A DNA stretch of 64,000 bases from Antedon mediterranea. Lineage: Eukaryota > Animalia > Echinodermata. The stretch is taken from assembly GCF_964355755.1 (NCBI RefSeq), contig NC_092675.1:24958912-25022911 (forward strand). The letters run 5' to 3'. A program made the translations under genes and the position numbers. Positions 9,130-61,900 of the stretch are shown piece by piece. The notes under the pieces were generated by a model. That model worked only from the letters and a program-made list of their open reading frames with translations. It was not told the DNA's origin and made no database searches. The first letter of the stretch is position 1, and each line of letters starts with the position of its first letter.

Positions 9130-9942
9130 GATTTCAGAAATTTGTCTGAGAAAAAACCACATACAAATATAATTCAGTGATGAACATTCGGATGTTGCCT
9201 CTGGCTGTTCACAGACAGACAGACAAACAAACATACTTATTGAAAACCTGACCTGCTGGTGAGTGAATGGTAGTCACCACCTCGAGTAGGTATAACCCAG
9301 CAATAAGAATTCAATTTAAAATAAGACTAAATTAAAGTAATTTTATTTAAATCAAGGTTATCCATTTAGGCCTATATTAATGAAAATTGTAAAAGTATTT
9401 AACTTTCAATGAATTAAAATGTATTAAGACATTTCAAAGTAATTTTATTTAAATAATTAATATTCAAGGTTGCTGTAAATATTAATACGTAATTAATGAA
9501 AATAACCTCGAATCAGAGGCAGTTGAATAGGATTGCAAAGAGGTGCATTCTCTTGTCGTCGGGATATGAGTCAAGATGGCCGGATGCTATTTTATACGAT
9601 GTCAAATATCTGACTTTGGCCATGTATTGTTAAAATATACGGGAAAAAAATATCTGTCCAAGTCTATCAATCTTAATTAATATTTTAAGCATATTGAATC
9701 ACTTTACCAATAAATCAATAATTCCTGGATGGTTAATCCTTGATATTTTGAAGAAAAACTCATTTACAATTGCGATAATGTCTTTGAGGGGCACACTTCC
9801 TTTAGGTTTTATATCACAAATTTGAAATATGAATGAAATGTGTATAAAATCCTACTCCAAGATCAAACAATAATCAGTACAGCATTTATACGTTTTAATA
9901 ATTTGATGTGATGTGTATACTGTTGTTACATTTTCCTTTTAA

Positions 9943-38845: not shown

Positions 38846-40013
38846 AATAAACATGATATTTAGTTGGCTAAAAACAACACATACTCATGTTTACCACCAG
38901 TGTTTTCTATTGCAACGTTTATTAGCTTTTTTTACATGGTTATAGGCGTACCCGTCCTCCATATTCACGTCACCGTCGTAGCTCTCGAGTAGTATTTCCA
39001 AGATATATTTGAGCACAGTCAATATTGAGGGGTCTCTCATCGTACAAATCGCTATCTGACATTACTGTGGAAATTCACAATTCATGAATATTTATTGCAC
39101 AGTATTTTTGCATAGCTGCAAGTCCACTTTGACATTTATAAAAAGTTTTTTTTTTAAATTATCATTATTATTTTTGACTTCACATGCGATAAGTGCCCAA
39201 ATACACCTAAGATATACTGTATATACATATTCAGATCTTTCTTTCTATACAAATCCTCAATAAATAATTTCAGTTAAGAGCTTAACATAACCGTTCATAA
39301 GCCTTTAAGAATAAAATGAGCTTGTTTACTATTTCTTTTTATGTATAATTTATAAGTTAAATTGTTCATTGTGTGAGCAACAATTGTCCACTGTCCCGGT
39401 ACCTGTCCGGGGCGCCCATTTATCCAAGGTTTATATAAGGTATTATTCGTATATTTTACAAAGTAAATAATAGACTACACGAATTGATTTAATATTTACA
39501 AGCATAGCTATGCACATGGCAAGCTTAAAATAGATTTAATATTTGAATAAATACATTAAAATAACCTACTATTTTGTAGGGAAACTTGAATACTGTCGTT
39601 ATATTATGTACCACAAATATTGTACATTGAATGCAACAAGCCAATGATAAATTTGGATTGAATGACGTAGTAAGGTATTTTGGTCCTGCTTTTAGTATCA
39701 CAATACTAACAACCCAATATGCCATTTTGAGTGTACATGATTTGTAGATAAAAACGATGATGAATACGACATAAATTAAATAAACACCAAAATGGCTTAA
39801 GGTACATTCGATGCGATATATTATAAGATACACTTGACTTCTAGTGGTCTCCTTCAGATTGAAAATAAAGTTCAGCTGCACTACATGATAACATGAGGCT
39901 GATATTGTTAAGATTGATGATGAGTAATTTACTCGTAACGAGAATATCACATCACATTTTGTACAAAACAACAGATAAGTACAGAAACATAATTTGGCGC
40001 CTTGTTAACAAAA

Positions 40014-43000
40014 TCATGGAATAGGAAGATCGTCTGCTGTCTGTGCTTCATCTGAGTCTTGTATTACTGCCGCACTTCCATCACATGTCACACAGCAGAT
40101 TTCTTCGTACCCCTCCAGTCCGCAATACAAATGCCGTAATTTAGGGTTGCACAGCAGAGAGCCTGAGACGGGAACGCATTTTTTGCTTTTTACTTCTACA
40201 GGTAAAAAAAGAAGAAACACGTTTAATTATATTGTCAATATCGAATCCAAAAGTCAGAAAAGCTTAGGTGATTCCAAAAATTGTATTGTGATTTAAAAGT
40301 AATTCCAAAAACTGATTGAACTTGTCAATGTTTATGAGCAAGTAAAATTGGTTTAACTTGGTAAAGTATGTGTGTAATATACCCTTTATCTTTAAGTATT
40401 TCCCAGTTTTTAGCATCATTATTATTATTTTGGGAAATAAAGAAACATAATGTTTATCTGTTTTCAGAATATCCTAAACCAATTGTTCATAAATTTGATG
40501 ATTCTCGTATTGTGGAAATTTAAAAACATTTTTCACGTGTTTTCTGAAAGTGGTGACAAAGAGTATATCCTAGAAGATGACACTTATTTGTAAGTGTCAT
40601 CCCGATTAGATGCAATTGAGTGGTGTGTGGGGCTTCATGTATCATGTCTACACTATCAAAATAGTGTGTCAAAAAAGTGTGATATGCCCAAATATGGTAG
40701 TCATATGACGTCATCGTGTCCATATGTGGGCACACCAAGTAAGGTTTGATAGTGTGGACAGATCTTTACTTTGAACAAACATGCTACATACATGCTACAA
40801 ACTACAACCAATTAACGGTACCTACGCTTGCTAGCACATTCACCCATGTCGCATTCACTGCTACTCTCTGGTTTGGTTTCAGGACATTGGTAATCTGAGC
40901 TTCGCATTGAAGGAATTGAGCAGGTTACAGTTCGTGTCATGACTCCAAGACCACAAGAAACTGAACACTAAAGGTAAAGAGCCATGCTTAGTCACAAACA
41001 TGTGTCGTACTAGTTCTAGACACTGAATTGCACGCATTTATAACACTCTGAAATTCCTAATGTCCATTTAGACTATCGTGCGGTATCATGTATTATAACC
41101 AATTCTTTATTAACTCTCACCGTACGTTACAGTATTGTCATAGAAAACAAATAACAAATGGCACAGAACGAAAACAAACAAAAAATAAAATCAAAAAATA
41201 TATATACGTATATATATACATATAGGCCTATAAACACATTAGGCTTGAAACATAAATATAAATATATATATAACCATGCTACAAGACAGGCTACATCATC
41301 CTATATAAAACGAAGGTACCGTCAGCAGAAACGATTTCTATCATGATCTTAACGTTCCTTTTAAAACTGTATTACTACAAAAATGCAAAAACTTGTTATT
41401 GAATAGGCACTATTGTACTAACCTCACTCCATTCTCCCGTCCTCCATACCAATGGGCACGGGTCGTTGTTGCATGCTTGACTATTTGCTGGCATTGGACC
41501 CGGGCATTTTCTATTGTTTACTGTATTTGCCCTCCCCTTGTCAACCTTTATGCAACGCACGCCACGAATTTGGATACCTCCACTACCACATGTTCGAGTA
41601 CAATGTTCCCATGGATCCGTTTGCCATTCGAATCTGTACAATAAACAGTTTAATTATTTTGTTTGTCAAATTATCGAGAGTCATTCTTTTTCAATAAACA
41701 TACAGTACTTTAAAATTGTGGACAAAAACAGTCAATTCCATCGATTTCAACTTAGAACCAAAACTCTACAAGAGAAGCATGTTTTCGTTTTGAACGGAAT
41801 ACACGAGGACGAATGTTAAATCGACCAACAATGCAGTCCTGATAATGAAACAAATGATACTGGGGTGTATACGCCCATTGCCACGTTTCTCTTTTGTATA
41901 AATTACGTCACAAATAACAAATTCACCAGGCATAGACGAATACATATCTATGTATAAGTACTGTATATTACCGTTTTTGTTTACATGGTTGTGTATTACA
42001 GAGTCTTCTGCTATTTATTGGATCATAATCTGCTTTTCCACAAAGTTCATTACCAACAATTTGATTGTCTGATTGTCGTCTGCATTCAAATGACTGGGTT
42101 TGCCATCCTGAAAAAATGAATCAATGCATTCATTTGATGTATTGGTGCATGCAGTTTTACAATAGTTTACATTTGCAATATTTGTTGGTCAACTTCGTCA
42201 TGATAATAAAATCAAGGCTTAGCCATAATTTCACAACAAAATGTACGCGCGTTCTGGAGACACGTTTCTGGTGATAAAGTCTGAATGGCGGATGTAAAAT
42301 AACGTCATAATTACAGCCGAATCAATAGCACTCCCACTACCAGATTTTGTTTGTTTGTAAGTCTAGACCAGACGGATTAAGAAGTTCAATATTCGTATTA
42401 ATGGGTCAAGAACAAATGTTTTTCCGGTTTAGAAGTAAAAATTAATTGAAAGGGGTTGTTGTATTTCGGTCAATATTATACCTCCCATCACCCCCGTATT
42501 TTGAGAATCATACGCCCCTTTTATTTATACGTAGGCGCATAAATTGCAGTTTGAGAAAAGGAACAAACCACTTACCTCCTCCACATTGTTTATTGCATTT
42601 TGACCATCCTACTTCTTGCCACAAGTATAAATCATCACTCCTTGATACTGCTAGGTCTTCAGACGGTAGCACGTATTTGTAAGTGAAATTAGCTCTTCGT
42701 TGATCTTTTGTACTGAATACCTAGAAGAAAAGTATACATAATATTTAGGCCTAATATCGTTGATACACAGTAGAACGCTTCATTTGGGCCACCCCTATCC
42801 AGGATTCTCGTATGAACGTACGAATGAGGGAAAATATTGTGCTTTGACATTACGATCAATCCCTATTCAGGATACACCCCTACCAATGAAGCACTTTGCT
42901 GGATGTCCCAAAGATGTCCCTCTAATAGGAGTTCCACTACTGCTATCCTATTTCATTGTTTTCACATTCATTTAGGGAAAAAATGTTATACTGGCCAAAT

Positions 43001-46000
43001 ACGTATTATTTCTTTCTTCCTTATTATTTAAACATTTGTTCGACGTCACGTGTTGCGTCTATGCATAACATAACACACGACGAGCAATGGTTCTACGACC
43101 TTACGCATGTCGCCTTATGGTATCATTTTACAATTATGGATTAAAAGATCGAAAACAAATCTTCTGAAATCCCTGATATCCCAGTCGTCCTTAACTCGTC
43201 ATAATTCACTCATTTGCAGTAATGAATTTATAATGAAATTGTCACGTACCATAAGTAACATGGATTGAGATATAGGTCCGTATGTTACGAGTTTCTCTTC
43301 AAAGCCGTCGTTTACATAGACAAAGTGGGATGCAACGTCCACGAATTCTTTTGACTGCGATTGCTTACCCATACCATTCAAAATCCAGCTTGATTTCTCT
43401 GGATTTTTTAAAGCTAAAAGAAATAAACCCATAGTGTTGAATTGTAACATGTATAAATTGAACATTTAATTGTGTTATGCTGTATTAAATTAATCTATTG
43501 TATATAATACTGGTACTATTCATTACTCTATTATATAATACTATTATTTACCGAAGAAATGTTTTGTATTTGTTACTTCAGTAATTTCAATGTGACGGGC
43601 GCCAGCTGGAATAACTACCACTCGCTGGTATTCTATAAAAAAAAAGCATAATTATTCAATTATTATTCTTCGACGACAGGACAATCAACTGTAATGAAAC
43701 ATCGCAAGGTGTGTGTTAATGTTTCCTGTATTAACTGTACTTGGACAGTTCGTAGTTCAATAACCCTAATAAGTAATTAATAGGTGTGTCTCTGGTTACG
43801 AATACAAAAAAGGAGAAATAGTTTATAAAATGTGTTCTTGTTTCATAGGGACTTGGATTTGATGACAAGTTATTAGGTGTGGTTTTCGTGTATCGGTTTT
43901 TATACAGGGAGAACAGAAAACGATACAAAGGCTTAATAGTTTGTAGGCCTAACACGGTCTTGTCTACGTTGCCTGGATATACACAACTATTTTAACCACT
44001 TTTTCAAAATGAAACTTACTCTTCTTTTTAGATTTCACGTAAGATCCCGTGACAGAACGACATTTAGAATTGTCACCCTCACAGATTCCACATAAATCCT
44101 CTGTCTTCCCCGATTCCAATACACTGTCACAACCAATTTCCTGTAATGAAAACAGAAGCGTTAAGACAATTTTATTTTCAATTACAAACAGAAAATCTAA
44201 TTGCATATCAGGAAGAATATACTTGTGATCCTCCCCTTATGGTGTCGCACCTCTACCCCGAGCTGATGAACGTGTTTGCACATATCCTGTCATCATCGTT
44301 ATCTTATATTGAATAGGGGAGTGTCCGAAATGTCCGCTCATCAAATCCAATTACTTGAGTTCATAACCGCAAGGAAAGTACGTTTGTATGATAACAGTTA
44401 TAATAGTTGACCTACATAACACCTGAGGCTCTTATTCAATTTTAAAACATGTATGATTATGCATAATATCAACAATATTAAAACACTCACAAACTAATTT
44501 GCCTATTACTTTGTTTCGTTAATAGCGACCTTTCGTTTTTCACAACGCGCCACTAGACTATCACAAGGCGCATGCTCATAATCATCTAAGAACGGTAGTT
44601 TCGTCGTTTTGCTTGTCACATCGTGAAACTAGAAATCATTATTTTTTTCTTAAAGTGTATGTCTTTTTCATTAAAATGTTAATGTCCTTTTCCTCAATAT
44701 ATTCTTTGAAAATTTATTATGATTTTACTTTAATTTACACTTATATTTCTAATATATCATCCGTATTTTAATCTATCACTTTTGTTTTTGTGTCGTTTTA
44801 AGGTCAGTGGAGGTTATTGCAAAGTAATAGAAAATAATTCATGTTTTTATAAAGTGTATTAAATCAAATAACAGTACCTGACATTTTCCTTGTACGCAAA
44901 TTCCATTAGGGTTGTCATAGGAACATCTGGTACCATCTATGACGTCATATTCTGATACTACAACATCTCCAGTGTTTTTAGACATGCATGTTAGACGACA
45001 TTGCAGAGAGCCTTTAAGACAATACGAAATTGATTAGAAAATGCAAATGTTTTACATTGCCATCTACAGTATTGTTTATGAGCTTTTAGTTTGAAATTAG
45101 GAAATAAATGAGGTATATTACTTTATATAAAAAAATTGTTAACCAGAGTGTTTTATACAGACTAAAAATAGAAATAATAAAACCATTGAACTTACTGTTA
45201 AGGTTTTCCATTGGTGCCCATGAATGCAGACGATCAAGGTAGCGCCAGTTAGACAGTTTATCTTTACATTGTGCTGCTCTTACGTCAGTCTTCTTTCCTA
45301 AGCAAGGCTAGAAATGGAATTAAGAAGCAAACGAATATTAAATAATAATTCCACATTCCACGTTGTTGTGTTATTAGCCAAACTATGGTAATACTGGTTA
45401 GTACTAACCTCAGCATTACACACTTTGAAATCTGTACTGCTACCGATACAGTCGGCACCTCCATCAGCAGGCCTGTGAAATTATCAATGTAAATTTAATA
45501 ATTTAAGTAATTTAACTGTCTTAATTTAACATTTTAAAGTTATTCAAACCATATTAATTTACTTTACCAATATGATGCTATAATAATATATACTATATAG
45601 GAAAGTCTCTTATACGCATGTGTATAAATATAAATACATCCTTTAGATACAAGTAACACATACTTACGCTGGGTTGTTACATTGTCTTGTTCTGATGGCG
45701 ACACCGGTTCCACAGGAGAATGAACATTCGCTAAATTCACTATATTCACTCCAACCCCCATTCACAACTGTAGACGTCACTATAGTTGTCGTCTTGACAT
45801 TTCCATTGTTCTTGGGTTTCTTTACACACTCTCCTTGCATACACCACTGAAAATACAATTATAATTATTAATTAATTATATTTATATTTTAAATGTCTGA
45901 TGTAATTGTTAAGCGTTGTGTGCTGAACTCAATTATTATTATCAGTTGTTTTGAAGCCGGATACAGGACCGGTTCTTTGTAAAGTTACAAAAGTAAAACT

Positions 46001-49000
46001 AAAATTTAGATAAAATATCACTTAATAGCAACATCAAAAAGCGCAACAAAATTACAATAGGTAAATAAATATAAATTTAGGTTCAGTCACATGTAAAAAA
46101 AAAATTAGAAAATACTACAAAGAATTGATCAAAATGGAAGTCAACAAACATTTGCATGAATAATCATAGACTCAAAGAAAACAAATTGTTGTAGAGAACA
46201 GTTCAAGAGAAAGAAAAACCTGCATTCAAAACAAAAATAGTAGGCCTACTGTACAATTTGTAGACCTACTATTTACAACCAATAAACGAATATTTGCAGA
46301 TTCATAGTAAAGTGAGAAACAAAACACTTTTTAGTGACATTTCGTAAAAGAAAAACATCAAATTATTTCAAAATCAATTTCTTAATCAAATATATTATAA
46401 AAATATCATAAAAACAAAGATCACACAAAAAGTATAGAAAAGTAGAAAGTATAAATATTAGGTCATTAAAAGTTAACTGAAGAATTGCTGGCATTGCACA
46501 TGCGCTCAATTATATATTTTTCAAATCAAGCTTTTTTGCACAAATGAAGTATAAGAGAACGAGATACAAAAACGGTTATTATAAATATTTTAAAAACTCT
46601 ACCTTTCAGTGGGCATATCTGCTGCTTTTAAATCTCGTGTACTTAATGTGTGTACGTTATGTTGTTTGTATGTTTGTTTAGATAAGATAGAAAAGTGTGT
46701 ATGTATGTATCTTGATGTTCAATATGTTTTAGTACTATATAGGGTACTGTACAAATATCACCATTGTGATTTTTCACTATTGATAGAGTCTATCTATCAC
46801 TAAAATCATCATCTATTTGCTGTAACTAAATCATCAACATCATCATCATTCATAATCATCACCATCATAAATAATAGGAAAGCAAACTAGCCTTCATTTA
46901 TGTTGTGTATATAATAATTATTATAAGATAAGTGTGTTTGTCTAACTAAACGAAATACCATTTTACAATAATTTATGTTAATTATTGCCATTGTTATAGA
47001 TACAAATCTAATTGCTGTTATTGTTATTAGTGTTGTTAGCAAAATTAACGTCAGACAGAATTATTAGAAAGATTATAGTTAGTAAACTTATAATACATGA
47101 ATTATGTTGGCAGCTTTACATTAAGTTCAACATGTTTTTCACTTCTTACACCATTTAAAAAAGGAATTCAACTAGGATCAAGTCTGGGGTCAGTTTATTC
47201 AATTACGTAATCTTACAACATTTGGCGGCAGCCTTCGTTATTATTTAACACATTAAATATATATAAACATCTGTTACAATTACAATTTATTACAGTTTAC
47301 AGAAGAAAACAAGTTACAAAACTGCCTGATTCATGACCAAAAAACATGCATTACACCTAGTGCTCGCAGTTTGTTTGAATGACGTCAGGAACGGGACGTA
47401 ACAACACTTATTGGCCAGGTAATATTGAGGTGATGTGGAAAACACCAGTTGATTAGGTTAGTATGTAAGTCATATCACTGACTGTTTTTCTTTTTATATA
47501 GATTATAATAACATTGTTCAGTTTTGGCCAACTTTGATGGAAACTTTCAAGTGATTTTGTTTTGTTTTATTTTAATAAAATACTGATTGTCAAAAGTCTG
47601 ATGGAGAGTTAGGAGAAATTTGGCTCGGCACACGGTTTAGAATTTGCTTTTCTTGCTCAATTCTCTCTTGGACTTCTTTACACATTTTCCGGCCATACAC
47701 CACTGGAATTTGGCATGGAATAAATGTAATGTTAGTATGTTAGTAGAGAACAACAATTAGTAATATTAGTTTCTACAAAAGTATGGCATTAATTACATAA
47801 CATCATATATAATAAAAAATACTTGTATATAAGGTAAGTATGTGTAATTTAAACGTTCGTAAATACTGTATTTCCCTAATATGCATTAAAATGTATTAAA
47901 GTATATACATTTCTTAATATATACAGAAAAAAAAACATTTTTAAAACAAATATGTAATAATGAAAACAAAAGTTGTATTGCAATGGATTGGAAAGCATGA
48001 ACTGAAAGTGTCGAATTCCTAAATCCAATAGTAATCCATTTCCACAACTAAACCTCAGATGTAAACACACAGAACTGGATAGATAAATTCATAAAGATCG
48101 CAATTCAAATCTTTGACCTAAATATTAATCTTAACAATTACGTTTGAAAAATAACCGGAAATAACATTCTCTTCCAAGAACAAGATAGTGTACCATACCA
48201 TTTCTTAGTTACATTTTATATAAAAGTTAAACGAAACAACGTGGAAATATATAAATCGCCGGATGTACATTATTCATGTAGCTGATGGAGTGACACAGGT
48301 GAAGTAGAATATCTAGAAAGAAAATGAAAGTCTTCCCAACTGACTATACAAACCACAAAGTCGAGTACCAGCTTATCAGCTAAAAGCAAAGTACTAAATT
48401 GTTTAGTGAATAGTCTTGAGTTTTAAAGGAGCAAGTTTAAACTGCAACGGAAATTATAAATATTGAAAAACTAAAAACAAGTTCACCAGCATGGACCGAC
48501 ACACAGACAAATCAAACTTTTGATAATTTCTTTTCTTAAAATTCTTCTTCTTCTTCTTATACTTCTTATACTTTGAACTAAGCCAATCCAAAGCTAACAT
48601 AATATTTCCTTTTAATTGATAATCATACAATTTAACATGATGGCTACCGACAAACAGTTTACAGAAAAACCGTTCCACTTTTTTTTAAGTTCTAAGCTTA
48701 AAACACTGTAAAATATATTGTTGAATATAGTAGGCAACACTGTCAAATATGGAATACATTTGTTGAACCTTAGAGGTAAAACAGTAAACTTGACTTCAAC
48801 CTCAAACACAACATGTCGTATTCACATGTGGATCTAGATAGCCAGTGGCACTTTGGTTTTCCCATTTATAGAATACATCAATGACGTCAACAACATATTC
48901 GCCTTTTTACCTAGTGATATATATTTAGATCTAGAGTACCTTGTGATGTATTTTAAAATATACGTGAGAGACGTTCAAACCGTGACTTCTTAAGCGTGGT

Positions 49001-52000
49001 TCCCACTAGCGACGCAACACAAGGACGTAACGCAACGCAAGTGAGTTGACCGATCACAAGCGATGGCTTATTCGCTTGTGATTGCTAACTGTCTATAACT
49101 TCGCTTGTCATTGGTTAAAACGCTTGTGTTGCGTTTACGTCCTTGCGTTACGTTCTAGTGGGAACCAAGCTTTAGATAAATGACCTGTTATTTTTAGTTA
49201 AGCTGCAATATATGTTGAACTACTGTATAAAGAAAATCATAGTTTTCTAATATGTGCAACTGCGCAAACGAAAAATGAAATCAAAACAATGTTAAAAATA
49301 GCCACGTAACAGGTATATTCCTGTCGTCAAAAGCTGGTGAATGGTTATACAAAAGTGGACAAACACCAGTCTTACCATCCCAGAGCCACATGAGCTACCC
49401 GGAAGAGCATAACCTAAATAATATCCATACCACGGGCTGGAACTATGTGAACATATCAGCTGGGAACAAACATCAAAATTGCACTGTAAAAAGTAAAGAA
49501 AACTATTACTTAAATGATGTTATGTTTTTCTTACCGACTTCTTGCGGCAAAATGTTCCATCAAGAGCTGGTCCTTTCTTGGTTTTACAAAAGAATGGATT
49601 TGAGGGTTGGGCACACCACAGTTGTCCACAAGGATCCATGGCACCGAACTAAAGAAATCATTTCAATAAACAATAGAAACAAAAATATTAAATCTATAAC
49701 ATAATAATTAAAGGTGGAATTATAATCACGTCTGGTGAACAATTCACAATTATTTGGAAGTTGTACATAAGTACACATATTAATATAACAATACAAGAAA
49801 ATAACAGTTATTTACCGCGGTACAACGTCCGAATTTATCACCGAAGTCAAATCGGCACTGGTCGTCAAGAGAGAATTTTTCGCCTGGTAATCCTGATGGA
49901 GCTTCGTATTCGGTATTACCACTATCATATGGGTTGTCATTCATACAAGTGTAGGAACTGTAATAAAAACATAGTGTTAATAAACTTACAGGCACGATGA
50001 TTCATGTTAAATTGTCAGATATTCCAACCCTCTTCTATTCCCTCCTAAAACAACTTCCATATAAACACGGAAATTACGCAGTTAGCTGGACACAAAAAAA
50101 GTACATTTTAAAGTGTTTATCTATTTTGTTTATTCAATTGTATTGTATATTAAAACAAAGAAAAAACTGCTGTAGTTTATATTATTAGGCCACAAATTTG
50201 TTTAATGCTATTGATAGTTTTTGAACAAAAAATACGGTATGCCTAGTTTACAAGTTCATTTAATCGAATGACAATGCGTTTTACGATATTAGAAGAAACG
50301 TTATGACCTGGTTTTTTATATATTCACAAAACACTATCATTTGATAGAACAAATCAACGTCCCGACGATTCTAATTGATACATTTTCAACTTTATAAAGT
50401 AAGTATTCGTACTTAAATAGACAAATATACTGAGTTGAATTACGATAAAATATTCTCCAGTCGATTTATCTGTTTATGTAATTAAAGAAATTTAATTTAT
50501 TAAAACAGGCATTGGGGAAACCAGGAAATTGTCATTATTTAGCAATTGTAATGTATGTCTATTGGGAAAACTTAAATACCGTACGCTGACAGCAACGTAG
50601 CTTGACAGGTGTAAGTAAACTGAACAAATTTTATATTTGAACTGACAAATTATTTTAATATTTTGAGGTAAAAATTAATTAGGATAATACTATTTTATCA
50701 GTAAGATAGATTTTGAAAAAAACATGTGAGGCGACACTGACACTCCGTGAATCCCAAGTCCATTCACAGCAAGAACAGGAAATTGAATTAAAACTTGAAC
50801 GTCGAGGTCACAAAATGTCAGTTTGCTCGGATTGGACGAATAAGTCGCGATCAACGATTTCACAACAAATAGATTACTTCGAATCTTAATTCAATAATTC
50901 GCTCAGACTGGGAGAGGTAAATATACGCGACAAGTAAAACATCCCTGTAGTATTATGCATCAAATTGTTTAATTATTTCTTTAACTTCAGATCTTTATCG
51001 GCAGTTGAGTAAAAATGCATAGTTTCAATAAACTATCTTTTCATTGCGTTGAGAGGTAACAATTCCCGACAACTAAACACCCTGTAGAATTATACCTAAA
51101 CGTGTTTAATTAGATCTTCAGATATGCATCTCAATTTGGGTAAAGGGCACGTATTGATTAACCTGGGCCAATTTCATACTACGAATTTTCCAAACACACA
51201 GTGCATAATCATCTGATATCATATTGTCTATAATACTTTATCTCTATCCTTATTGGCTTAATCGCAATTAAGTTAAATAGGAGTTGTATATCAAGGTGGG
51301 CTAGCTAACAGGTGAGTTTATCACTAGGTCAAGTCTCCGTAGATTCGAGGTAACAAATAATTCGCCAGCCAATCAGAGACTGTTGTTAAAATGACAAGTA
51401 TTGCATCTTTCCCACACAGATACAGTATAGCATTATGTTATTTCTCGATCTCTTGCTAAATTACACTTTAAGTTTGTTCCCGTTTGCACCTACCATTACA
51501 GCTCAGCTCAACTAGGGCTAGGGTGTCCCGTGGTTCTCATACATGGGTTCCATTGTTTCTATGACTAATTTGACATGTGGCAACCAAATGCATGGTAATG
51601 TACACTTGTCAGATTAAATGCAAAACGTTACAATGGAGTTTAAATGCCTTACGCCTACCGTACTTTAAACATTTAAAATCTCGACAAATCGTAAGATATT
51701 TTACTTTTTTACTTCTCTGTTGTTAATGTTAACTATGAAGGATTAATTTGACAGGACATTTCATCCCAACTATGGTTTCAATTATGTGATATCCCACTTA
51801 CCTAAAATATTGTTAAATATGCCAGTAAGCACCGGTCGTTTGTGCCAACTAGTACTATACTAAAGTCTGACCTTCTCGGGTGAATTAAAAGGAGGTTTTA
51901 ACTAGGATACAAATAATAATCAATTTATGGATTGAATTGAAATACTACAAATAAGACAATTTCAATTAAAACAAGGGTCTGAAAAGATATATGCAATATG

Positions 52001-55000
52001 CTTTTTTATATTAAATTATTAATCGTCATTAAATTCATATTAAAATTCTTTTCATTCGTAAGAATAAATTAAGAATTGCAAAAAAGCTGCCAAGTCATGC
52101 ATGGGCTAGAAGACACGTATTGATTGATTGGATACACATTTGAAAAGTTATCAAAATGATACGAAATGACGGGTCGATTAGATGAACATGACAGTTACCG
52201 TACCAATTGACAAATACAAGTTTTAGTGCATATACTTCTCATTTTCTGTTTGATTTAGTACCGTATCTATTTGCCAATTATTCGTTTTTTAAAAGGAAGA
52301 CTGACTTTCAACTAGGTTGGAAGTCTCCTGCAATGTTCATTTTTAGCAAGAAAACAGCTGATTTACTACAAGTACAAATCAAGCAGAACTCCTGACATTT
52401 GCATTTCGGTCCCATGCAGAATAAACAATAATGTATCGTGCTCATGCTCGGGGGCTTATATGTTTAAGACTTGTAATACCCATGTCCGCGAGTTTTTAAC
52501 GTTTAACAAAGAAAACATGGTATTAATTTGCATAATAATTAGCATTTCATTGGCAATCTGAAAACAATAACGTCACGTTCTATTCTGTAAACCTTATAAT
52601 ATTGTTTTCTCTTAACACCATACTCAAAACTTTACAATATACAAATTACATTAAGCTACAAACTCGAAGAGTATGGCAATACTTTTTTTCAGTTTAATCT
52701 ATTAATTTGGACGGCTCTTAGTATTGTTGAGACCCAATGTACACAGATTAATAATATCATTCACATTTCTTTTGCCAAGTAATAGGTCTACAGAAAATTA
52801 AGTAACCCAACACCTATAACCAACTAAATGACGACTGAACCAAAAAACAAAACGATAACTACTATTTATTTTAAATTACTAATTTTGATGCTTTTTGTTA
52901 ATTGATAGTTTTTAATTTGACGAGAGTTTATATAGTGTATGTTAAAATTAATTCATTTTAGGATATATTAAAGAAAATATTTGTTGCTAAAAATAAAGTT
53001 TACTGTATTTAACCATTTAATATCTCAGACATATCATTTATCAGATTGAAAGTTAAAGTCATTAAATTTTCTTTTCCTGATGTCGTAAATTTCACTTGAA
53101 GTTTGTGGGGCGGCTGGCGATTGAAAAATAAAATTGTGAATGTCAATTGCGATAAATCATTAGTCAATTCTCTTTCCTCCTCAGATTCCTCATTGATCTT
53201 TATAGCAGTATTAGCTTTATACTGATATAGCCAGGGTATGACCAGCCATTAGGGCCAAAATAGTGATGATGAATAATGAAAAAAAATGACGTTACGACAA
53301 TTTGTCTTTTTGTTTTTCTTTATTTTGACCATATTGGCTGCCCATGTTACAACTCTTAGAAATAATACGAAAGTAGACAACTACCAAAAGGGAAATAATA
53401 ATTTGGTTACATTCATTAAACTGATTAGTCTTAATTCGAAAGAGGCTAAAACAGAACGGAAATGAAAGGAAAGAAATAAAACTATATAATTGGGTAACTT
53501 TGTTCAATAATAGCATTACAGAAGTAATTTTGACAGTCTGCAAAAAAGTGTAAAATTCTAATGATGAATGTGTTTGATTTGTATAGGTATGTTGGTGTAA
53601 GGTAACAACTATTTTAATCCATGTCAAATGCCATTTATTATAGGCTACTTTAAAAACACGGTATGTTAATATAAATTAAGAAATTAAAATTAAAAGTACA
53701 TACAATCATGTTTTTCTGTTGGAAAATATTTCAAAATTAAGTCAAATTAAATTCGTATCCTGTTTGTAGTGTGCTATGACAGGTTGGGATTATTAATTTC
53801 GTTATAAAAATATGTTATTCCTGGGCTGAGGTTCCTTAAAGAGGTGTGTCGGCAATGCGAGATTCAAACGTTACTAATAAAATATGATACAGTATGCCTC
53901 CATTGAAAACCCCTTTCTTAAATCTTTTTACTCAACTACAACGTACCGAAACCTGAAAATACGTAGTTTTGTTCCCAAAAATATATGATAGAAATTAAAT
54001 CTGACTGATTGAGAAGTCAATTAACCGTTATCAACGTAACGTAACTACCGTTATCAACGTAACGTAACTACCGTTATCAACGTAACTACCGTCTGTATTA
54101 TAATTCTATTTCTCTAATATTCCAAAGTTTCTATTGTAAAGTCATGGCACATTGGAGGTATTTGGAAATGTTAGATTACCAAATGCGATATCAGAACGAA
54201 AACCGAATGTAATGTGTGTTTAGATTGACTGATAGTATTTAATTTGAAAGTGAAAATAACTTACTTAAGGTTGCTCTCAAGTTCCTTTTTGCTGCACGAT
54301 GACCAGAAGTATTTGTGGTACGTAGCTGTGACAAGAGGGGCCATGATACTACCTTTGTTTGCATCTTTTTTGCAAGCATTGCCCTGTCCGTCGTGGTCCA
54401 TTCCAAGCCTGAGAAACATTAAGTTAATTATGTTAGGGAAAGAGTATATCATATTTCTTCTATTCTAGACACCTCTATACGGTACCTACTTCATGCTATC
54501 GTAAAAAGGTGATATTTGCACACAATATAAACGTATTTAATGTGAACTTTGTTATGCTAGTTAGGCTTATAGCAACAGTTAGTGTAGATTAGTTTAACTT
54601 CACTTTTTTTTCAGGTTAAAATCTCAGAAGAGAACCTGATAAAGGCCAAGAGACAGAAAAGGTAATACAACTTTTTGTAAGTTAAATAAATGTATATAAT
54701 ACTAATCAGTGGCGAATTTGTGTTAACATTTTAACGAACAGTAGCGGTGCCGCGTGCCAAAATAGTTCTCGGAAGCGACGCTGACCAGTTAAGTTGTTGG
54801 GTCATTTTAGGCCGCGAAGCTCCTCATTTGCACCGCAATTGTTTGTGTTTAAATAAACTTACGTGTGTCCAACTTCGTGAACAGTTACAAAGCTTGTGAG
54901 CATACCGTCATCTTTCATCAAGCCACAACTTCTCATTGAGCACATGCTACCCAATGGTGCGTATCCTTAGTGTGCAAGCATGCATTTAAAAGAAGTGCGT

Positions 55001-58000
55001 GATGGGTTAGTATAGTATATTAAAAACCTAAATTGGAACCAGTTTGGTCCCATCAATGTCTATAAATATCATATTAAGTTCGTTAAGAGATTTGTCACAT
55101 AACATCTCTTTCTGTTGGAGAGTGCGGATTACAGATTCTAATACGTTTTACCATACGAATAACCTTTGAGAAGTATTGGCAATAATGCTTCAGGAGATCA
55201 AACGCCTAAATACAATAACTTTATAGAAATCAACACTCCCATAAATCAACAATTATTCTAATATTATGAATTAATAATAATCTGATAAGAGTTGTATTCA
55301 AATTATAATATAATACCAAAGTCATATTGGCGGATTAGTATACTAATTCGTAAACGTCTGAAAATTTTCAAAAAGGTCAATGACAGCAATTATCCGAGTT
55401 AACATTTTAAATTGTTATCGGATTTTTTTTAAAGTTCAAATTATATATCATTACGTTATAGTGAAAGGTAAGTGATCGTAGTGTTTTAATCTGATCATCT
55501 TCGAGATTTGGGTCTGAATTTTTAGGTCATCTTGATTCTAGATTTTTGGGTGACCTTGGTCTTGAGTCTCGCTTTAAGTTATTTGTGGTCTATCGCACTG
55601 TTAGGTAGTGAGTCTTTGGTCATCTGGGTCCATAGCCTAGCCTAAGTTATTTGGTTTATCGTACTGTTAGGTAGTGAGTCTTTGGTCATCTGGGTCCATA
55701 GCCTAGCCTAAGTTATTTGGTTTATCGTACTGTTAGGTAGTGAGTCCTTGGTCACATAGGGTCCAGAGCCTGGCCTAAGTTATTTGGTATATCTTGCTGG
55801 TCTAGATTGTTTGGCCATTTTTGGTATAGAGTCTGGTCTAATGCGTTTTATAAATTTGTATGAAAGTGGTTTGGTTGGGTGTATTGGTAACATTTTAGTT
55901 GTGTCAGGTTGCATTCTAAATAACTACCCGGATGTGTCTGAAAGTAAGCTGAACAAACTTAATTTATAATCGTTAAGAATCTTGATCTTGTCGTCCAGGT
56001 ACTGATTTTTCATTAGAAAACAATGAAACCTATTTATTTTAACGTACGTTAGTGGGCTTTTAACACGGGTCACAACACTGGTCTATACTATAGATTATAT
56101 TATTAGCCTAAGTGGACGATTCGAAGGCATGCTATAACGGAAAGCGCCAGGCAGGTTAGGCAACGTTTGAGTACTTACAGGTGTTCAGATGAACTTTAAT
56201 CGTAAATTTTTGTTAGATCATAAATTGAAGTTGTTGAAAGAAAGATAGACTGGGGCTTAATACGTAAGTGTTAGAGTGCAATGGTGTTAGAGGTTACTTA
56301 ACATTGAGGAAATTAGCAAGGAATTTGATAAACTTTGACAAAGTCCTTCAGGCAAACTTCATATTTTACTGTTAATCACGAAGTTAATAAGCATGGTGTT
56401 GTCTATCTAGCTTTCTTTCGGTGAGTGGGTTAGTAATGGTTGCATGTTTTAAAGGAAATCCCACTTACACATGGCCCACCTCGTGTGAGGCTACAAATGC
56501 CGACAAAAGGCCTTCATCTCGGGTGAGGGCACAACTTCTGGGACTATTACACATACCCCTCACAGGGCCATATCCTGAAAGCATTCAACGTATTTTGTGT
56601 TAAAACTAGATAAAACACAAACTGACACAACGCCGTATGACATGATCTTATCAACCTTCAAATCGAAATATTGCGTTGTCTTACGTCACAGTTAAAATAT
56701 GTGCAATGTTCTCTTACCTGCTGGTCCGAAGCTGTCACGTGTGAAGAAGAGAGCCAGATCATGATGTTCCTTATTGCTATCGTCTGGGTGGTTTGCTTTG
56801 TAAGCCCATGTGCATACTTTTCTCAAACTGGCGGCTGGTGAACCACTGATCATTCCGCTTGACTGTGGAGACAAAACAATTAAGTTTAAATATTTTCTAT
56901 ATAACATAAGTAATACATGTGTTTTTTAACTTGAGATTCATGGATATTTAATATTTGTTAATGAGCTATTTTAAAAAATGTATATATTACCTGTGACTTG
57001 CTGAGCATTACAATTCTGATGACAGCAACTGTGACATCGATGTTCAATGATTTGTGGTGGTATGCTTCATTTACCTAAACAACAATAATGCAATAGTTCT
57101 ATTTAGTTTTAGTTATGCATTATTTAACATAGAATAATTGCGTAATGTATACAGTATACGGACGGCGGTTCAGACGTGTTCCCATCCTTCATTGCTGGTC
57201 GCTTACCGGCAGATCGGTGCTTGTAATACGGACCATCGTTGTTTTAAATACGAATGAATTTAACTTTATGTCATTACTTTGTACTTATTGTTACTTAAGC
57301 GTGGTTCCCACTAGCGACGCAACACAAGGACGTAACGCAACGCAAGTGAATTGACCAATCGCTTATTCGCTTGTGATTGCTAACTGTCTATAACTTCGCT
57401 TGTCATTGGTTAAAGCGCTTGCGTTGCGTTTACGTCCTTGCGTTACGTTCTAGTGGGAACCAAGCTTTACATGATAATTTCAGACGGCGTTATTTTAAAT
57501 ACTGTTAAACACGTTATGTACATCATAATATCAATAAATATCGGTAAAATATACCATTCATATTCATGGCACACGATACAAACGTAAGTGATTCAATATC
57601 ATTACATATTAACGGTAGGCTTATTACTTAATTGAATCTATTTGTGCTTTGTCACGAAATTTGTAAAAGCCTAATAACATACGGAAAGTGAAAACATACT
57701 TATTTAAAATGTTCAAACAAAAGTTATCAAAACAATTAGATTATAGACAAAGGTCAATATTTAGAGACTGTAAAGTTCATCATTAGATAGATGAACTCAA
57801 TATCACAACACGGTACAGTATAATTATCTTCTGTGGGTACATGTTCCTTAAGCTCTGTCTACACTGTCTAACTAACTAACACTACTTATGTCTACATTCC
57901 ATTGTACATTAAGACACTTTCCGTTTCGTTTGAGCTGTTTATTCTTACTCCAGTAAGAAACCAATGTAAATATTGTATGGGTAAAGTACTTACGATGTTC

Positions 58001-58944
58001 ATCATGGTAAGAAGGTAAGTTGGAATGTTTTCTTCACCGTGGAACTCTACCATTGTGTTGTCAACAGCAAGCATTGTCTCAATGAAGTATTTTCCTCCCG
58101 ATCCACGCTTAACTCTTCCAGTTTCCATTGCAACGTCTTTCACCTTTTTTACAACTTCTTCTGCCGAATCTATATAATCAGTTAGGATCAAATTTATGCT
58201 TCGCCTCACACAAATTAACGTGCTCATGATCAAAACATTAATTCATCGTGCATAGTTTGATCATGACCAACTCTGTGCCAACTAATATTCAATTTGGATT
58301 TTTTTTTTTTATGTAAAGATTTTTTTAAATTAAATTTGAGAGTGATATTTTTAATATTTCATTTGTAATCGTAAAAATACACATTAGGTAATAAATTAAA
58401 AATAGTATTTCAAAAAATGGTTTTAGTTATCTTATCTTAACTACTTTACTTATAGAATCCCCACATCCTATATCTATTTGACTTAAAGGTCCCTAAAGAT
58501 CCATCTCAGCATTAACTGATACTTTTATGTGGTTTTCCTTCCTCATATGTTGAATTTTGAATATTAAATTAAACAATTCAACTGGAGGAACCAAAAGAGG
58601 TGGTTGTAAAAATTGTAAATTAGATGTATATTGTATTGAAGAAAATTATACGATTTGATTCCAATTCAGGCGGTCGGTGTTGGAGTTTGTATTTACGTTT
58701 TAAATAAATCTCAGAAAATTAGTATTTCTAGGTTGATATACTCGTCAGTGGTTTTGTATTAAATGTATTACTCGGCTATAGTGATATTATTCTTACCAAA
58801 ATCACCGAATTTTGAGCCGTCTCTCTTGACAAGAGCACTTCTTTCGTACACGATGTGGGTCTTGCCTGCCTCAGGGTTGTTTGATCCAGTCTCAATTGGC
58901 TCAACTATCTTTTCGTTGCCATCCTTATCTTTAAATATACCTTG
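40014..58944 (-). CDS. ADAMTS2/3/14-like (procollagen N-proteinase clade) metalloprotease, 5'-partial; full-length isoform
   Basis: Exons in transcript order: 58944-58797; 58169-57994 (furin site RVKR); 57074-56991; 56862-56718; [56574-56469 or 54965-54863]; 54408-54265 ([10 protein letters not shown], Met-turn SIMAP); 49957-49816; [49648-49535 or 49483-49376]; 45846-45668 (TSR1); 45472-45409; 45307-45196; 45011-44878; 44140-44020; 43632-43552; 43413-43250; 42720-42576; 42107-41972; 41633-41423; 40967-40826; 40195-40014 (PLAC-like, stop). Domain order pro-catalytic-disintegrin-TSR-Cys-rich-spacer-3xTSR-PLAC, plus FGPAG, HDGQGN and CKTKKGP, indicate the ADAMTS2/3/14 clade. Signal peptide and earlier prodomain exons were not located. 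Confidence 0.9.
42763..42942. mobile_element. Tc1/mariner-type MITE remnant in an ADAMTS intron
   Basis: TACACAGTAGAACGC... / ...GGAGTTCCACTACTG imperfect TIRs of the CAGTGGAAC type. Confidence 0.5.
47637..47702 (-). CDS. ADAMTS alternative terminal exon ([21 protein letters not shown])
   Basis: TTCCAG acceptor preceded by TACTAACATACTAAC; phase 0; paralogous to the start of exon 45846 ([12 protein letters not shown]); TAA at 47639-47637; minus-strand AATAAA at 47571-47566. Confidence 0.78.
   Translation of the reverse strand, partial: WCMAGKCVKKSKRELSKKSKF
48992..49173. mobile_element. MITE family B copy
   Basis: Near-identical to 15141-15322 and 57297-57468. Confidence 0.85.
49376..49483 (-). 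CDS. ADAMTS disintegrin-like exon variant 2 ([36 protein letters not shown])
   Basis: TTTTTACAG acceptor, GTAAG donor, 108 nt, phase 0-0; aligns to variant 1 (DxCxQLxC...P...ALxGxxC). Confidence 0.78.
49535..49648 (-). CDS. ADAMTS disintegrin-like exon variant 1 ([38 protein letters not shown])
   Basis: TTTAG acceptor, GTAAG donor, 114 nt, phase 0-0; canonical ADAMTS2/3-like sequence. Confidence 0.88.
54023..54092. repeat. 23-bp tandem repeat (CCGTTATCAACGTAACGTAACTA)x~3
   Basis: Directly visible. Confidence 0.8.
54863..54965 (-). CDS. ADAMTS catalytic exon variant B ([35 protein letters not shown])
   Basis: CTAAG acceptor with TACTAAC ~40 nt upstream, GTAAGT donor, 103 nt, same phases as variant A, open frame. 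Confidence 0.85.
55575..55790. repeat. 66-bp tandem repeat x~3 between ADAMTS catalytic exons A and B
   Basis: Unit TAAGTTATTTGGTTTATCGTACTGTTAGGTAGTGAGTCTTTGGTCATCTGGGTCCATAGCCTAGCC. Confidence 0.85.
56469..56574 (-). CDS. ADAMTS catalytic exon variant A ([36 protein letters not shown])
   Basis: TTTCAG acceptor, GTAAGT donor, 106 nt, phase 1 to phase 2. Confidence 0.88.
57297..57468. mobile_element. MITE family B copy
   Basis: AAGCGTGGTTCCCACTAGCGACGCAAC...TTCTAGTGGGAACCAAGCTT. Confidence 0.85.
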
Positions 58945-61900
58945 CTGAAATAAGAACAATTTAAGGTATTAATTAAATTATTTATATTTTTAAAAGTTTA
59001 TTAGTAATTATGGAGATAAAGTGTAAAAAGTTCTTGTTTTTTTTTGTTTTGATAAAAACTGAATGAGTAAATCTAAAATAAAAATTCTAAAAAACCACAA
59101 ATTGCAATACCACTTACTATAACCGGAACATAAAATGTCCAGTTTCTTTAAATCGTCCACTTTATAGTATGTTTTTGTAACCTGTAATATTTCTTATTAA
59201 CAATCCGGTTACAGTAACAGTTTTTAATACTTCCTTATCCCATCGGATCATCATATAATTCAAATTAAATTGATACTTGGAAGAGTTCGTAACAATGCAT
59301 TTTTAGATTTTATCAGTGGAGTCATTTTATTGAATAATAATATAGATATTTTTGAATGGTGTACTTTATGAGTCACGTGTATTGTTTCCCGTTGCATTCC
59401 CAAGTGTCTATCATCTGACTCAGTGTCGTTCAAGACATGTTTATCTACAGAGGCATATACAACCGAGGAAACGTTCTGTTTTATCGTTTTCATTCAGACC
59501 CTATTCTCTCAACGAGGCTTTTTACTATGGATTGTCCAATCATCGTTACCAACATAAAATCTAGGTCAACATAAATTTTCTTTCAAAGAATTTAATTAAA
59601 AGTTGCACAAAACTATTGTGCTTTCATAATTAAAAGTATGCGTTGTATTGTAGGCCTACTTTTAATCTAGATTTACAGACCTGTACAGTTTCGTATTTAC
59701 ATTTAATAAATGTTTATTTTCTTTTTCTTTAATATTTGGCAATATTTGGAGTTTTTAATCAGGGTACTGGCACTAGGATGTGATTAAAGGTCCTGATCCG
59801 GTTGTAGTAGTTTGTAAAGAAACTTATTTTATATACACTAATGTATTTCGTACTAGGGTTTTTTAATAGTATATATCACATTTGTAAATCAAGTATTTTT
59901 AGTGAAAGAATGGTTCTCTTTGTAAGCCGCTTGCTTGAGAACGACGCGCGCGTATATGTGTACAGTTAATTTTCGGAGATGTAGGCCGCACAGTCATGTA
60001 CGTTTACGATACGTTTACGTGTTTTGCTAAATGCTGCTAAACAGTGCAACTGTCCCTTTAAGTACAAAGTGACGTTGAGGTTGTTGAGGTCAGCTTTTTT
60101 AACCAAGTTATTTCATGAGTAGGACAATGCAAGGTGCTATTCCGTTAATCACAGTAGTCGGTGTGGTGTTGATATAGAACCACTGATTCATACATGAATG
60201 TACAACCTCCCTATAAATTGTGTACAGTCAACAAAGTGCTGTTTTGTTCTATCATTTATCACGAGGCGTAAAATGTGGAAGGTAAACGGATGTGTGGTTA
60301 GCCTCACCGTTTAATAGAATCACCTATTCAAAAATGTGGGACAAGAAAATTATCGTTATCGAAATCCTTTAAATGTCACATGTTGTATAAAACCATTAAT
60401 ACCTTTCATAATTATATAGGCCATGTTTCACTTTGTCTGGCATGGTGGAAATCGCACGCTGTATACAAATACATAAAGTCCGCTAACACAATGACTTCGC
60501 CCCATGGGATGATGTCCGCAAACACCTTACGGACAGATAGAACTTGTTCGCCACAAAACAGTAGCAATTCCCATAGCTAATGCACCCTTCATTGTTCCTT
60601 CCTATTAATGTGTAATTTCCTATGCAATCGATAACGGCTTATAAAGCAATTGAAAAATGTCCATAGAACTGTTTGATGTTTGTAGTCTGGGGATGCAAAC
60701 TTTATATATTACTGTTATTTGGTCCCAGTTGAGTCGATATATTATTAGTCACTCAGCTATCCACGTGACCACTGTTACTATTTAACACGAAGGTCAGGGA
60801 TTTTCTAGCCTTTACTTTTAAATATGAAATATTATTCATTGTGAAACTAAACATTATCATAATACGGAATGTCATAGGTTGTAAATGAATACCATTCACC
60901 TATCACTTGCCCTTTTTAAAACCTCATATAGGCTTTTTAATCACCCTCATTTCCTTTAAATTAATCGTTTTTTGCTGGAAGAATTAATTTAATATTAATT
61001 GATTGGTGATATGATTTGTTGAATTCATGACTAAATAAACAAATTTGTATTTTAAGTAAACGGATTGACCTACTGCCTTAAAGTATTGACTTAATTAATA
61101 CTAGGCCTCTGAAATTGATACCCATGAAATGACCTAGTACAAGGTAGGCCTACTACCAAATAAATATTGTTTATATTAGGTGATAAGCATTGTTATATAT
61201 ATATATGCTGTAATCAATGTATTTATCGTCATATTTACTAACTACTGATGCAGTTCCATATTAATTCAAACACAAATTATTTTTAATAGGTCTAAGCACC
61301 ACTCTAAAAAGTAATACATATTTATAAATTATAGCACATTGATCTGCGTTTTGTGCCAGTAGGAGCCAGAATATGCCACTTTTACATGATGCACAAACGT
61401 GTCTATGTGTAACGGTGGCATGGAACAAACACGATGGTGTTCTTTCTAGTGGAACTTCAAGAATAATTATGTGAATTTGCTTATATAAAAACCATAATAA
61501 TCTTCGCTACTTAACCATTATTCCCGTCAATTTAAAAACGAAGAGGCCTAAATGAGTAGTGTAAAAAAAAAAAAGCTGTTACATTTAACCGAACCGTATC
61601 AGCCGTAACTCATCACGTGATGCATAGCGTTTTGAAACTTATTATTTTCAAGAAATGAAGTGGAACATCTTGTTCGAAAATAGTTGTAGCAATTTATCCA
61701 CGCTAATTAGGTTAATGGTATTATTACCATTGGTTTTCACGCATCATTCCATTGTTGAATCAGTGCGCATGATGATATTTGATTTTTATAACGTTTAGGA
61801 TTGGTTTATGTTTAGTTATTGTTTCCAAATACCATAGTGAAATTATAATAAAAAATGAATTTCTTTTTAAGCTGTGTAGGCCGCAATACTTAAATTAATA

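Follow-up and report, generated by a model that had tools for sequence, protein, structure and literature searches.

Organization of the gene

The window analyzed here, a stretch of 64,000 nucleotides from the crinoid Antedon mediterranea, contains a minus-strand ADAMTS2/3/14-like gene with three duplicated exon pairs. Its exon peptides were located by tblastn with proteins of the crinoid Anneissia japonica, whose orthologue is the nearest relative of the gene product (79% identity, 711 of 901 aligned amino acids). The features are listed below in order of transcription.

56991..58944, minus strand: three upstream exons (end of the prodomain, RVKR furin-type site, start of the catalytic domain), placed by tblastn, reading frame and RNA joints
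56718..56862, minus strand: constitutive exon E of the metalloprotease domain, ending in phase 1, the upstream partner common to A and B
56469..56574, minus strand: active-site exon A (edge strand to second zinc-binding His), 106 nt, phase 1 to 2, of ancestral length, minor in RNA run X1
54863..54965, minus strand: active-site exon B, 103 nt, phase 1 to 2, one residue shorter than A, major in RNA run X1
54265..54408, minus strand: constitutive exon C (third zinc-binding His, Met-turn), Pfam Reprolysin E=0.0026, C-to-D joint depth 14558
49816..49957, minus strand: constitutive exon D (end of the catalytic domain, first two disintegrin-like Cys), Pfam ADAMTS_CR_2 positions 1–23, D-to-V1 joint depth 13335
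49535..49648, minus strand: disintegrin-like exon V1 (V-loop, hypervariable exosite of the basic KTKK type), 114 nt, phase 0 to 0
49484..49534, minus strand: 51-nt spacer from the V1 donor to the V2 acceptor
49376..49483, minus strand: disintegrin-like exon V2, which may substitute for V1 and has an aromatic exosite and one cysteine in a shifted position, 108 nt, phase 0 to 0
47637..47702, minus strand: alternative last exon T (last two disintegrin-like Cys, basic tail, stop), 21 codons plus stop
46485..47636, minus strand: 3' UTR of the short form, with AATAAA at 47291 and 47199 and a weaker extension to about 46485
45668..45846, minus strand: exon N (the same two Cys, linker, first half of TSR1), leading into the long form, Pfam TSP_1 E=5.4e-7
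40014..45472, minus strand: eleven more long-form exons (end of TSR1, Cys-rich region, spacer, three TSRs, C-terminal Cys module)

Contigs of run X1 hold the joints among the three upstream exons and a loose end at 58945, and no earlier exon was found in the window. The N-terminus of the Anneissia orthologue has a hydrophobic stretch. Exon E is identical to its Anneissia counterpart at 44 of 48 residues, and its upstream joint is present in run X1. Together with exon C, A and B alike complete the HExxHxxGxxH motif and Met-turn (M12B), and the orthologue can be aligned with the structures of ADAMTS1, 4, 5 and 13; Pfam Reprolysin matches on single exons fall below the curated cut-off. The AlphaFold prediction for the B isoform of Anneissia, with a mean pLDDT of 53.7 and values near 25 at the active site, was set aside. 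The eleven downstream exons have an open frame and AG/GT at every border, and the long form shows the ADAMTS domain order (disintegrin-like, TSR1, Cys-rich, spacer, further TSRs), whereas the short form lacks all domains after the disintegrin-like one. The 119 non-self protein matches listed of 1104 come from chordates, nearly all of them named ADAMTS14 or ADAMTS3 (50–53% identity), which supports placing the gene in the ADAMTS2/3/14 clade, and no other named echinoderm protein is among those 119. Isoform differences in vertebrates map to the same E–A/B and V–N junctions, i.e., the intron positions are shared.

Two active-site exons, two disintegrin-like exons and a stop-containing copy of the following exon had been proposed by a sequence-only reading of the window. 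All six exons of the three pairs were found, with non-chance scores, AG/GT ends and equal phases in each pair. When 21 exon peptides were compared with the window by tblastn, no fourth pair emerged; the only matches were A/B, N/T, the expected cross-matches among TSRs and some at chance level. An assembly artefact or the remnants of a local gene duplication, suggested by the tandem arrangement alone, can be considered negligible. Only single exons are duplicated, the flanking exons being single, and the copies are 53–80% identical, far below allelic identity (61/102 nucleotides for A/B and 55/103 for V1/V2). Every exon is covered by contigs of three DNA runs, all from one sample that may be the source of the window; V1 and V2 share one contig, and these contigs agree with the RNA joints. 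For A/B, also present in a second species, and for T, this explanation is already refuted.

The RNA evidence consists of contigs from a single run, X1 (tissue not on record), classed as RNA solely by its GT-AG joints; the run labels X1 and X2 are distinct from the Anneissia isoforms X1 and X2. Contig depth cannot rank parts of one gene, and fold differences derived from it are rough. Run X1 contains four GT-AG joints in this part of the gene that are absent from the three DNA runs: B–C (depth 10049), C–D (14558), D–V1 (13335) and V1–T (25000). The last depth, which may be a ceiling, is the highest among the X1 joints listed (15 of 354). By its joints, the main product in this run is B+V1+T. 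The coupled short form B+V2+T, envisaged by the sequence-only reading, is not supported by these joints and was rejected as the main short form.

Alternative active-site exons

Profiles for the exon tests were built from non-crinoid homologues alone, with 30 shuffles of the whole window as the control. The A/B profile gave 57.0 bits for A and 43.0 bits for B, against 11.8 bits for the best shuffle. The two exons share 19–20 of 34 residues, and 15 of 34 positions differ. The same swap is found in the Anneissia ADAMTS3-like orthologue (XP_033127267/8/9, RefSeq automatic models X1–X3), of which X1 and X3 carry A and X2 carries B; the sole difference between X1 and X2 is the A/B segment, at 15 positions. 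Exon A shares 30 of 34 amino acids with the A segment of isoform X1 and exon B 32 of 33 with the B segment of isoform X2, so that the conservation of each equals or exceeds that of most constitutive exons (57–100%). Since the orthologous copies are far more alike than the paralogous ones, the A/B duplication is, judging from the sequences, older than the split of the two crinoid species. No description of the Anneissia swap was found in the literature.

When 32 exon paths were tested for frame, the inclusion of both A and B, or of neither, disrupted it, which locks each mRNA to one of them; all eight single-choice paths (A/B × V1/V2 × T/N) are in frame. In addition to the B–C joint, the letters of the end of exon E were found as a loose contig end at 54967. 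For exon A, an X1 contig begins 27 letters before 56573, as predicted for a branch of a 31-mer graph after an E-to-A splice; from this start we infer the splice, and exon A is very likely used in RNA. The contig has a depth of 26 (about 100 on the exon by estimate, if the intron part is near 13) and continues into the intron, where read-through meets a stop directly after the second His; no A-to-C joint is among the 15 listed of the 354 joints in run X1. A and B are thus mutually exclusive homologous exons: tandem, with the same phases, one per mRNA, and both used, A in this species very likely.

Both exons have an intact zinc motif, and B keeps the catalytic Glu. The A/B segment corresponds to ADAMTS13 195–228, counting from the first zinc-binding His, a range that holds S1, S3 and cleft-floor residues (PMC6706451, PMC5814862). 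A and B carry the same residues opposite Val195 and Asp217 of ADAMTS13, as well as three and four residues ahead of the first His, so that primary specificity may barely change. Exon A has retained the loop length of chordates and resembles their sequences slightly more (19–21 of 34 residues, vs 17 of 34 for B).

The idea that splicing here replaces the diversity of the paralogs ADAMTS2/3/14 fares poorly at the active site. Vertebrate ADAMTS2/3/14 and amphioxus sequences are nearly identical over this segment, so that A and B do not mimic the active sites of the vertebrate trio but exceed their diversity. In a comparison of seven isoform pairs, amphioxus and lamprey show one-residue differences elsewhere, which are not swaps of the A/B type, and vertebrate ADAMTS14 isoforms vary by three residues at the E–A/B junction only. 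A segment that is near-invariant from amphioxus to man coexists as two conserved variants in crinoids.

Alternative endings T and N

The starts of T and N agree at 24 of 30 nucleotides, a score reached in 0 of 500 shuffles; the profile from non-crinoid homologues, too short and too diverged, found neither exon. T encodes eight K/R and one E, and it supplies the last two Cys, giving the short form a complete eight-Cys disintegrin-like domain. The short form spans the same region as the crystallized catalytic-plus-disintegrin fragments of ADAMTS1 (2jih, 300 aa) and ADAMTS4 (2rjp, 316 aa). In run X1, its 3' UTR reaches a depth of 28009 (bin 46804–47467), and an 898-nt contig at 46485–47382 has a depth of 2345, compared with 21–42 in DNA run X2. 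T thus behaves as an alternative last exon, followed by a 3' UTR of its own with AATAAA signals, and would compete with the downstream exon N. One V1 contig stops after exactly the nine letters common to T and N, as would be expected at a T/N branch; a V1–N joint was not directly seen.

The long form is also expressed, as the sequence-only reading had supposed, with depths of 455 at 41529 and 1187 in its 3' UTR at 39824; by contig depth, a rough measure, its exons lie about 20- to 50-fold below the short form, and B+V1+T exceeds A by about two orders of magnitude. These values bear on the possible, though doubtful, reading that the gene runs two programmes, with A/B coupled to the ending: a rare A+V1+N enzyme for procollagen processing and an abundant, derived B+V1+T enzyme with a new job. 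The dominance of B and T, the minor share of A and the long form, and the chordate-like loop of A are in line with it. However, the long-form depth is higher than that of exon A, and the Anneissia models join both A and B to the long form, X2 being B+long.

T and V2 are absent from all three Anneissia models, and a search for shorter proteins yielded no crinoid protein among its 38 matches. Conservation in a related species is thus seen for A/B. With respect to use, the expectation that the duplicated exons are selected and spliced was borne out for B and T by the B–C and V1–T joints, and very probably for A; use of V2 was not seen.

The candidate exon V2

With the V profile, V1 scored 69.5 bits and V2 18.0 bits, the best shuffle reaching 13.0 bits. 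V1 is joined on both its sides in run X1 and is identical to its Anneissia counterpart at 38 of 38 residues, i.e., unchanged since the crinoid split. V2 has lost residues that are invariant in 56 of 56 homologues (W11, C21, KTKK, P27 and T32), and it replaces the basic exosite of the V1 type with aromatic residues. It matches the non-crinoid majority at four sites where V1 departs from it (S13 in 56/56, H14 in 55/56, G37 in 50/56 and F4 in 42/56), is identical to amphioxus at 15 of 35 residues and to V1 at 12 of 38, and keeps eight cysteines, including a CxxC, through a positional swap. Its frame is open and its splice sites are strong; by chance, an open frame occurs in about 7% of intronic windows of 108 nt. 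The ancestral residues, the likeness to amphioxus and the eight cysteines together mark V2, at the level of sequence, as an old copy that has been kept open.

None of the joints D–V2, V2–T and V2–N is among the 15 listed of the 354 in run X1, and contigs lose rare variants. No homologue of V2 was found among 1.84 billion representatives (four matches, all spurious, none an ADAMTS segment), and a comparison with the PDB gave two chance matches only. The absence of V2 from the listed joints and the lack of a homologue among the representatives, along with the lost Trp, Cys and KTKK motif, leave some room for the view that V2 is in decay as a pseudo-exon, or acts as a poison exon giving a misfolded domain, and that the gene has two real switches. 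We regard this as a minority possibility, since the open frame, both splice sites, the even Cys count and the ancestral residues speak against decay, as does the retention of V2 beside an unchanged V1; for a poison exon, there would be no need to preserve the frame.

V1 and V2 are tandem and homologous with equal phases, and the 51-nt spacer between them is predicted to block joint inclusion. A donor-to-branch-point distance under 50 nt is given as an exclusion rule in PMC5740500, and each of the 19 introns of the B/V1/N path measures at least 101 nt; V1+V2 splicing is therefore likely forbidden. V1/V2 is likely a third splice switch, with V2 a candidate not seen among the listed joints. An inverted-repeat search, which had no chance control, found no convincing docking-selector pair; outside a mobile element, only short, imperfect repeats were present.

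Proposed products

We consider it probable that this is a switch gene, choosing A or B, T or N, and likely V1 or V2, in which the abundant B+V1+T product is likely a released protease with targets other than procollagen. Each mRNA would take one zinc-site exon and one ending, with A/B exclusion presumably policed by nonsense-mediated decay, V1/V2 exclusion enforced by the 51-nt spacing, and T acting as an intronic polyadenylation exon. Furin-type cleavage would leave a short form of 302 residues (catalytic domain, eight-Cys disintegrin-like domain and basic tail) or a long form of about 836 residues. Given the intact zinc motif in both, the A/B choice would tune the non-primed side of the cleft instead of turning catalysis on and off, and V2 would put an aromatic exosite in place of the basic one of the disintegrin-like domain. 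B+V1+T would likely be released and act on targets other than procollagen, whose processing is predicted for the long forms. The gene thus likely yields several enzymes with different targets.

That the three switches are all used and chosen independently, with up to eight proteases made in different cell types or at different stages, seems unlikely. The eight in-frame paths, the old and intact V2 with its strong splice sites, and the pairing of A and B each with the long form in Anneissia are compatible with it, whereas V2 is missing from the listed RNA joints and the Anneissia models, and one path dominates run X1. Still less probable is a short form inactive in vivo, serving as a decoy (inhibitor sink or competitor) or down-tuning the long enzyme by early polyadenylation: T restores two closing cysteines that are missing in that spacing from the primate tail described below, B keeps its catalytic Glu and is conserved at 32 of 33 residues, and very high expression would be a costly off-switch. 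Also improbable is the extension of the switch-gene reading to a modular protease family whose cleft, exosite and matrix anchor are each switchable, the very highly expressed anchor-free form being a secreted effector of connective-tissue softening, autotomy or regeneration. A tie to mutable collagenous tissue is speculation; the short form offers a concrete candidate for echinoderm matrix remodelling.

Comparison with known systems

The specificity of ADAMTS enzymes is attributed to gene duplication and ancillary exosites. In the literature, we found no ADAMTS with alternative zinc-site exons; a case from the ADAM or ADAMTS families may figure in the exon tables published with PMC5740500 and PMC7954323. 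Splice variants of ADAMTS4, 6, 7, 9, 13 and 17 alter ancillary domains, secretion and activity (PMC8275829); that review describes spacer deletions, insertions and truncations, and the term "mutually exclusive" is absent from it.

The closest parallel to the short form is in human and chimpanzee ADAMTS2, where 543 residues are followed by 23 from an exon in intron 10; this form is reported to be inactive on procollagen, and its relevance is unexplained (PMC12362006). As in the crinoid gene, the last exon lies in the same intron after the V1 equivalent, and all ancillary domains are lost. However, the primate exon does not duplicate the following exon and fails to restore the closing C-x5-C pair, whereas T is a duplicate, completes the domain and belongs to the major form in run X1. 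A stable, abundant catalytic-plus-disintegrin form thus bears on the human ADAMTS2 short form.

Many-copy exon arrays diversify the specificity region within one gene in the reactive loop of insect serpin-1 and in Dscam1. The crinoid gene differs in having pairs only, in encoding a protease and in the lack of a docking-selector pairing in our search. In PKM, PFKP, CRMP and CG42249, exons duplicated in tandem close to functional sites are kept mutually exclusive by a frame shift or by branch-point proximity, and the mutually exclusive exon survey counts nine events at catalytic sites, with the word "protease" absent from its main text (PMC7954323, PMC5740500). In the crinoid gene, by comparison, the swapped exon contributes two of the zinc ligands as well as the catalytic Glu, and the substrate path includes two further duplicated pairs. 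Catalytic helix, disintegrin exosite and ancillary region swapped inside one gene would provide natural matched pairs for tests of substrate choice.

Gene structure and duplicated exons

The region covers part of a minus-strand ADAMTS gene. Along the path through B, V1 and N, we mapped 20 exons from 58944 to 40014, all with AG/GT borders, which together keep 908 codons open. In the database, exon C comes closest to an ADAMTS3-like protein from the crinoid Anneissia japonica (87%), and the path is identical to this Anneissia orthologue at 711 of 901 positions, so that by homology the DNA is probably that of a crinoid; the non-Anneissia matches listed were chordate ADAMTS14 and ADAMTS3 (50–53% identical). 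The three duplicated exon pairs claimed in the sequence-only reading are all present as described:

56718–56862, minus: exon E
56469–56574, minus: A, active-site (zinc-site) exon, 106 nt, phase 1 to 2
54863–54965, minus: B, alternative to A, 103 nt, phase 1 to 2
54265–54408, minus: exon C
49816–49957, minus: exon D
49535–49648, minus: V1, disintegrin-like exon, 114 nt, phase 0
49376–49483, minus: V2, its copy, 108 nt, phase 0
47637–47702, minus: T, copy of the start of N with a stop codon
45668–45846, minus: N, exon starting TSR1

Profiles from non-crinoid homologues scored 57.0 (A), 43.0 (B), 69.5 (V1) and 18.0 bits (V2), with maxima of 11.8 and 13.0 bits over 30 shuffles. T agrees with N at 24 of 30 nucleotides, matched by 0 of 500 shuffles. 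A search with 21 exon peptides found no further duplicated exons. Every exon is covered by DNA contigs (three runs, one sample), which break at repeats only; three tandem 66-nt repeats in the A–B intron (55586–55783) are one such place.

Active-site exons A and B

Two frame-locked active-site exons are conserved in two crinoids. Paths containing both A and B or neither ran into an early stop (16/16), whereas A alone or B alone kept the frame in the remaining 16/16; mis-spliced products would be removed by decay. Anneissia RefSeq isoforms X1 and X2 differ solely in the A/B segment, at 15 positions. Identity across species is 30/34 for A and 32/33 for B, whereas A and B share 19–20/34. The duplication is thus older than the species split and both copies are constrained, which bears out the earlier claim of selection.

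Both exons retain the catalytic Glu and two His. By alignment, the exon corresponds to ADAMTS13 residues 195–228, counted from the first His, a stretch that, according to excerpts of PMC6706451 and PMC5814862, includes Val195 (S1), Leu198 (possibly S3), Glu212 and Asp217. A and B differ at 196, 198–200, the next loop (one residue shorter in B), 209–219 and 222–223, and agree at 195 and 217. Judged from these residues, the swap would adjust the loop and the cleft's non-primed side without turning the enzyme on or off. Since the segment is nearly invariant among chordate ADAMTS2/3/14 and amphioxus, A and B are no counterpart of the vertebrate paralogues, for which splicing had been proposed to stand in.

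Vertebrate ADAMTS14 isoforms (P0013/P0153, P0089/P0169) show a three-residue difference exactly at the E-to-A/B junction, which is therefore alternatively spliced in vertebrates too. Protein P0222 carries RDEG in its active-site segment, as in exon A, versus HEDG in chordates, hinting that A is nearer the ancestral state.

Disintegrin-like exons V1 and V2

V1 and V2 are both symmetric and cannot be separated by frame. The gap between them is 51 nt, versus at least 101 nt for the other 19 introns, so any branch point would lie <50 nt from the V1 donor, a steric criterion in an excerpt of PMC5740500; the two exons would exclude each other sterically. In ADAMTS13 the disintegrin exosite is formed by the V-loop and hypervariable region (PMC4885070, PMC6706451, both in part), the stretch that this exon encodes. 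The KTKK motif, invariant in 56/56 homologous segments, is replaced in V2 by a Tyr-rich stretch. V2 has also lost one invariant Cys and gained another at the exon start, keeping the total at eight; the gained Cys makes up a CxxC together with the final Cys of exon D. V1 is identical in both crinoids. At 4 sites V2, unlike V1, matches the outgroup residue; it is also closer to amphioxus (15/35) than to V1 (12/38), which marks it as an old duplicate kept open. Its age and open frame favour use, and V2 is probably spliced into messages.

Transcripts in run X1

Run X1, a sequencing run presumed to be RNA, is a single library with no recorded tissue, from a different study than the DNA runs. GT-AG joints missing from the DNA runs connect B–C (10049), C–D (14558), D–V1 (13335) and V1–T (25000), contig depths that serve as orders of magnitude only and cannot rank parts of a gene; two further upstream joints are likewise missing from the DNA. 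The loose end at the B acceptor has the letters of E's end. The main X1 message is therefore E-B-C-D-V1-T, and the alternative last exon T is dominant in this library. The long form is also expressed, its exons reaching depths of 455 (at 41529) and 1187 (3′ UTR), whereas listed intron contigs and sites lie at 4–34. A V1 contig stops past the 9 letters common to T and N, probably branching to both. Exon A lies in an 880-nt contig (depth 26) that extends into the intron. Its start, 27 letters ahead of 56573 (26 E letters plus the first G), is where a 31-mer branch following E-to-A splicing is expected. Among the 15 of 354 X1 joints listed, none involved V2 and none joined A to C, a joint that contigs cannot exclude.

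Short and long endings

The final two of the eight cysteines in the disintegrin-like domain come from T, leaving the short form with a full set; beyond them lie a basic tail and a 3′ UTR containing AATAAA signals. The predicted mature short protein (302 residues) has the span of the crystallised ADAMTS1 and ADAMTS4 fragments. It would not be a procollagen N-proteinase and may be an enzyme with other substrates, either released or bound to polyanions; the forms would differ in substrates and localisation. T is in none of the three Anneissia models. Separately, the last TSR exon can be read through into the intron (40967–40813, minus) to a short basic end and stop; this matches the end of Anneissia isoform X3, making it likely that a further conserved variant of the C-terminus omits the last exon.

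Neighbouring elements and genes

A MITE-like element of ~190 bp with terminal inverted repeats occurs at 48988–49176, 200 nt downstream of V2, and at about 57297–57467, and DNA and RNA runs alike cover both copies at very high depth. BolA-like exons (27409–26660) and membralin exons (33178–32912) lie on the minus strand, downstream of the ADAMTS gene. A multi-exon gene at 9273–4465 (minus; 430-codon frame) ends in a SAM domain (Pfam 3.5e-5); its middle exons have no Pfam match and look TIR-like by eye.

Comparison with known systems

Among the literature titles listed, none described an ADAMTS whose zinc-site exons alternate; in the Anneissia RefSeq models the A/B swap is already present, without comment. 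A review on the echinoderm matrix tallies ADAMTS genes, 14 of them in Anneissia, and in the portion available is silent on isoforms (PMC10381214). The duplicated exon pairs are real; the kinds of event are known: splice variants affecting ADAMTS ancillary domains (PMC8275829, in part), and homologous exons close to functional sites that are used in a mutually exclusive way, of which a survey, seen in extract, counts 9 at catalytic sites, its main text lacking the word protease (PMC7954323).
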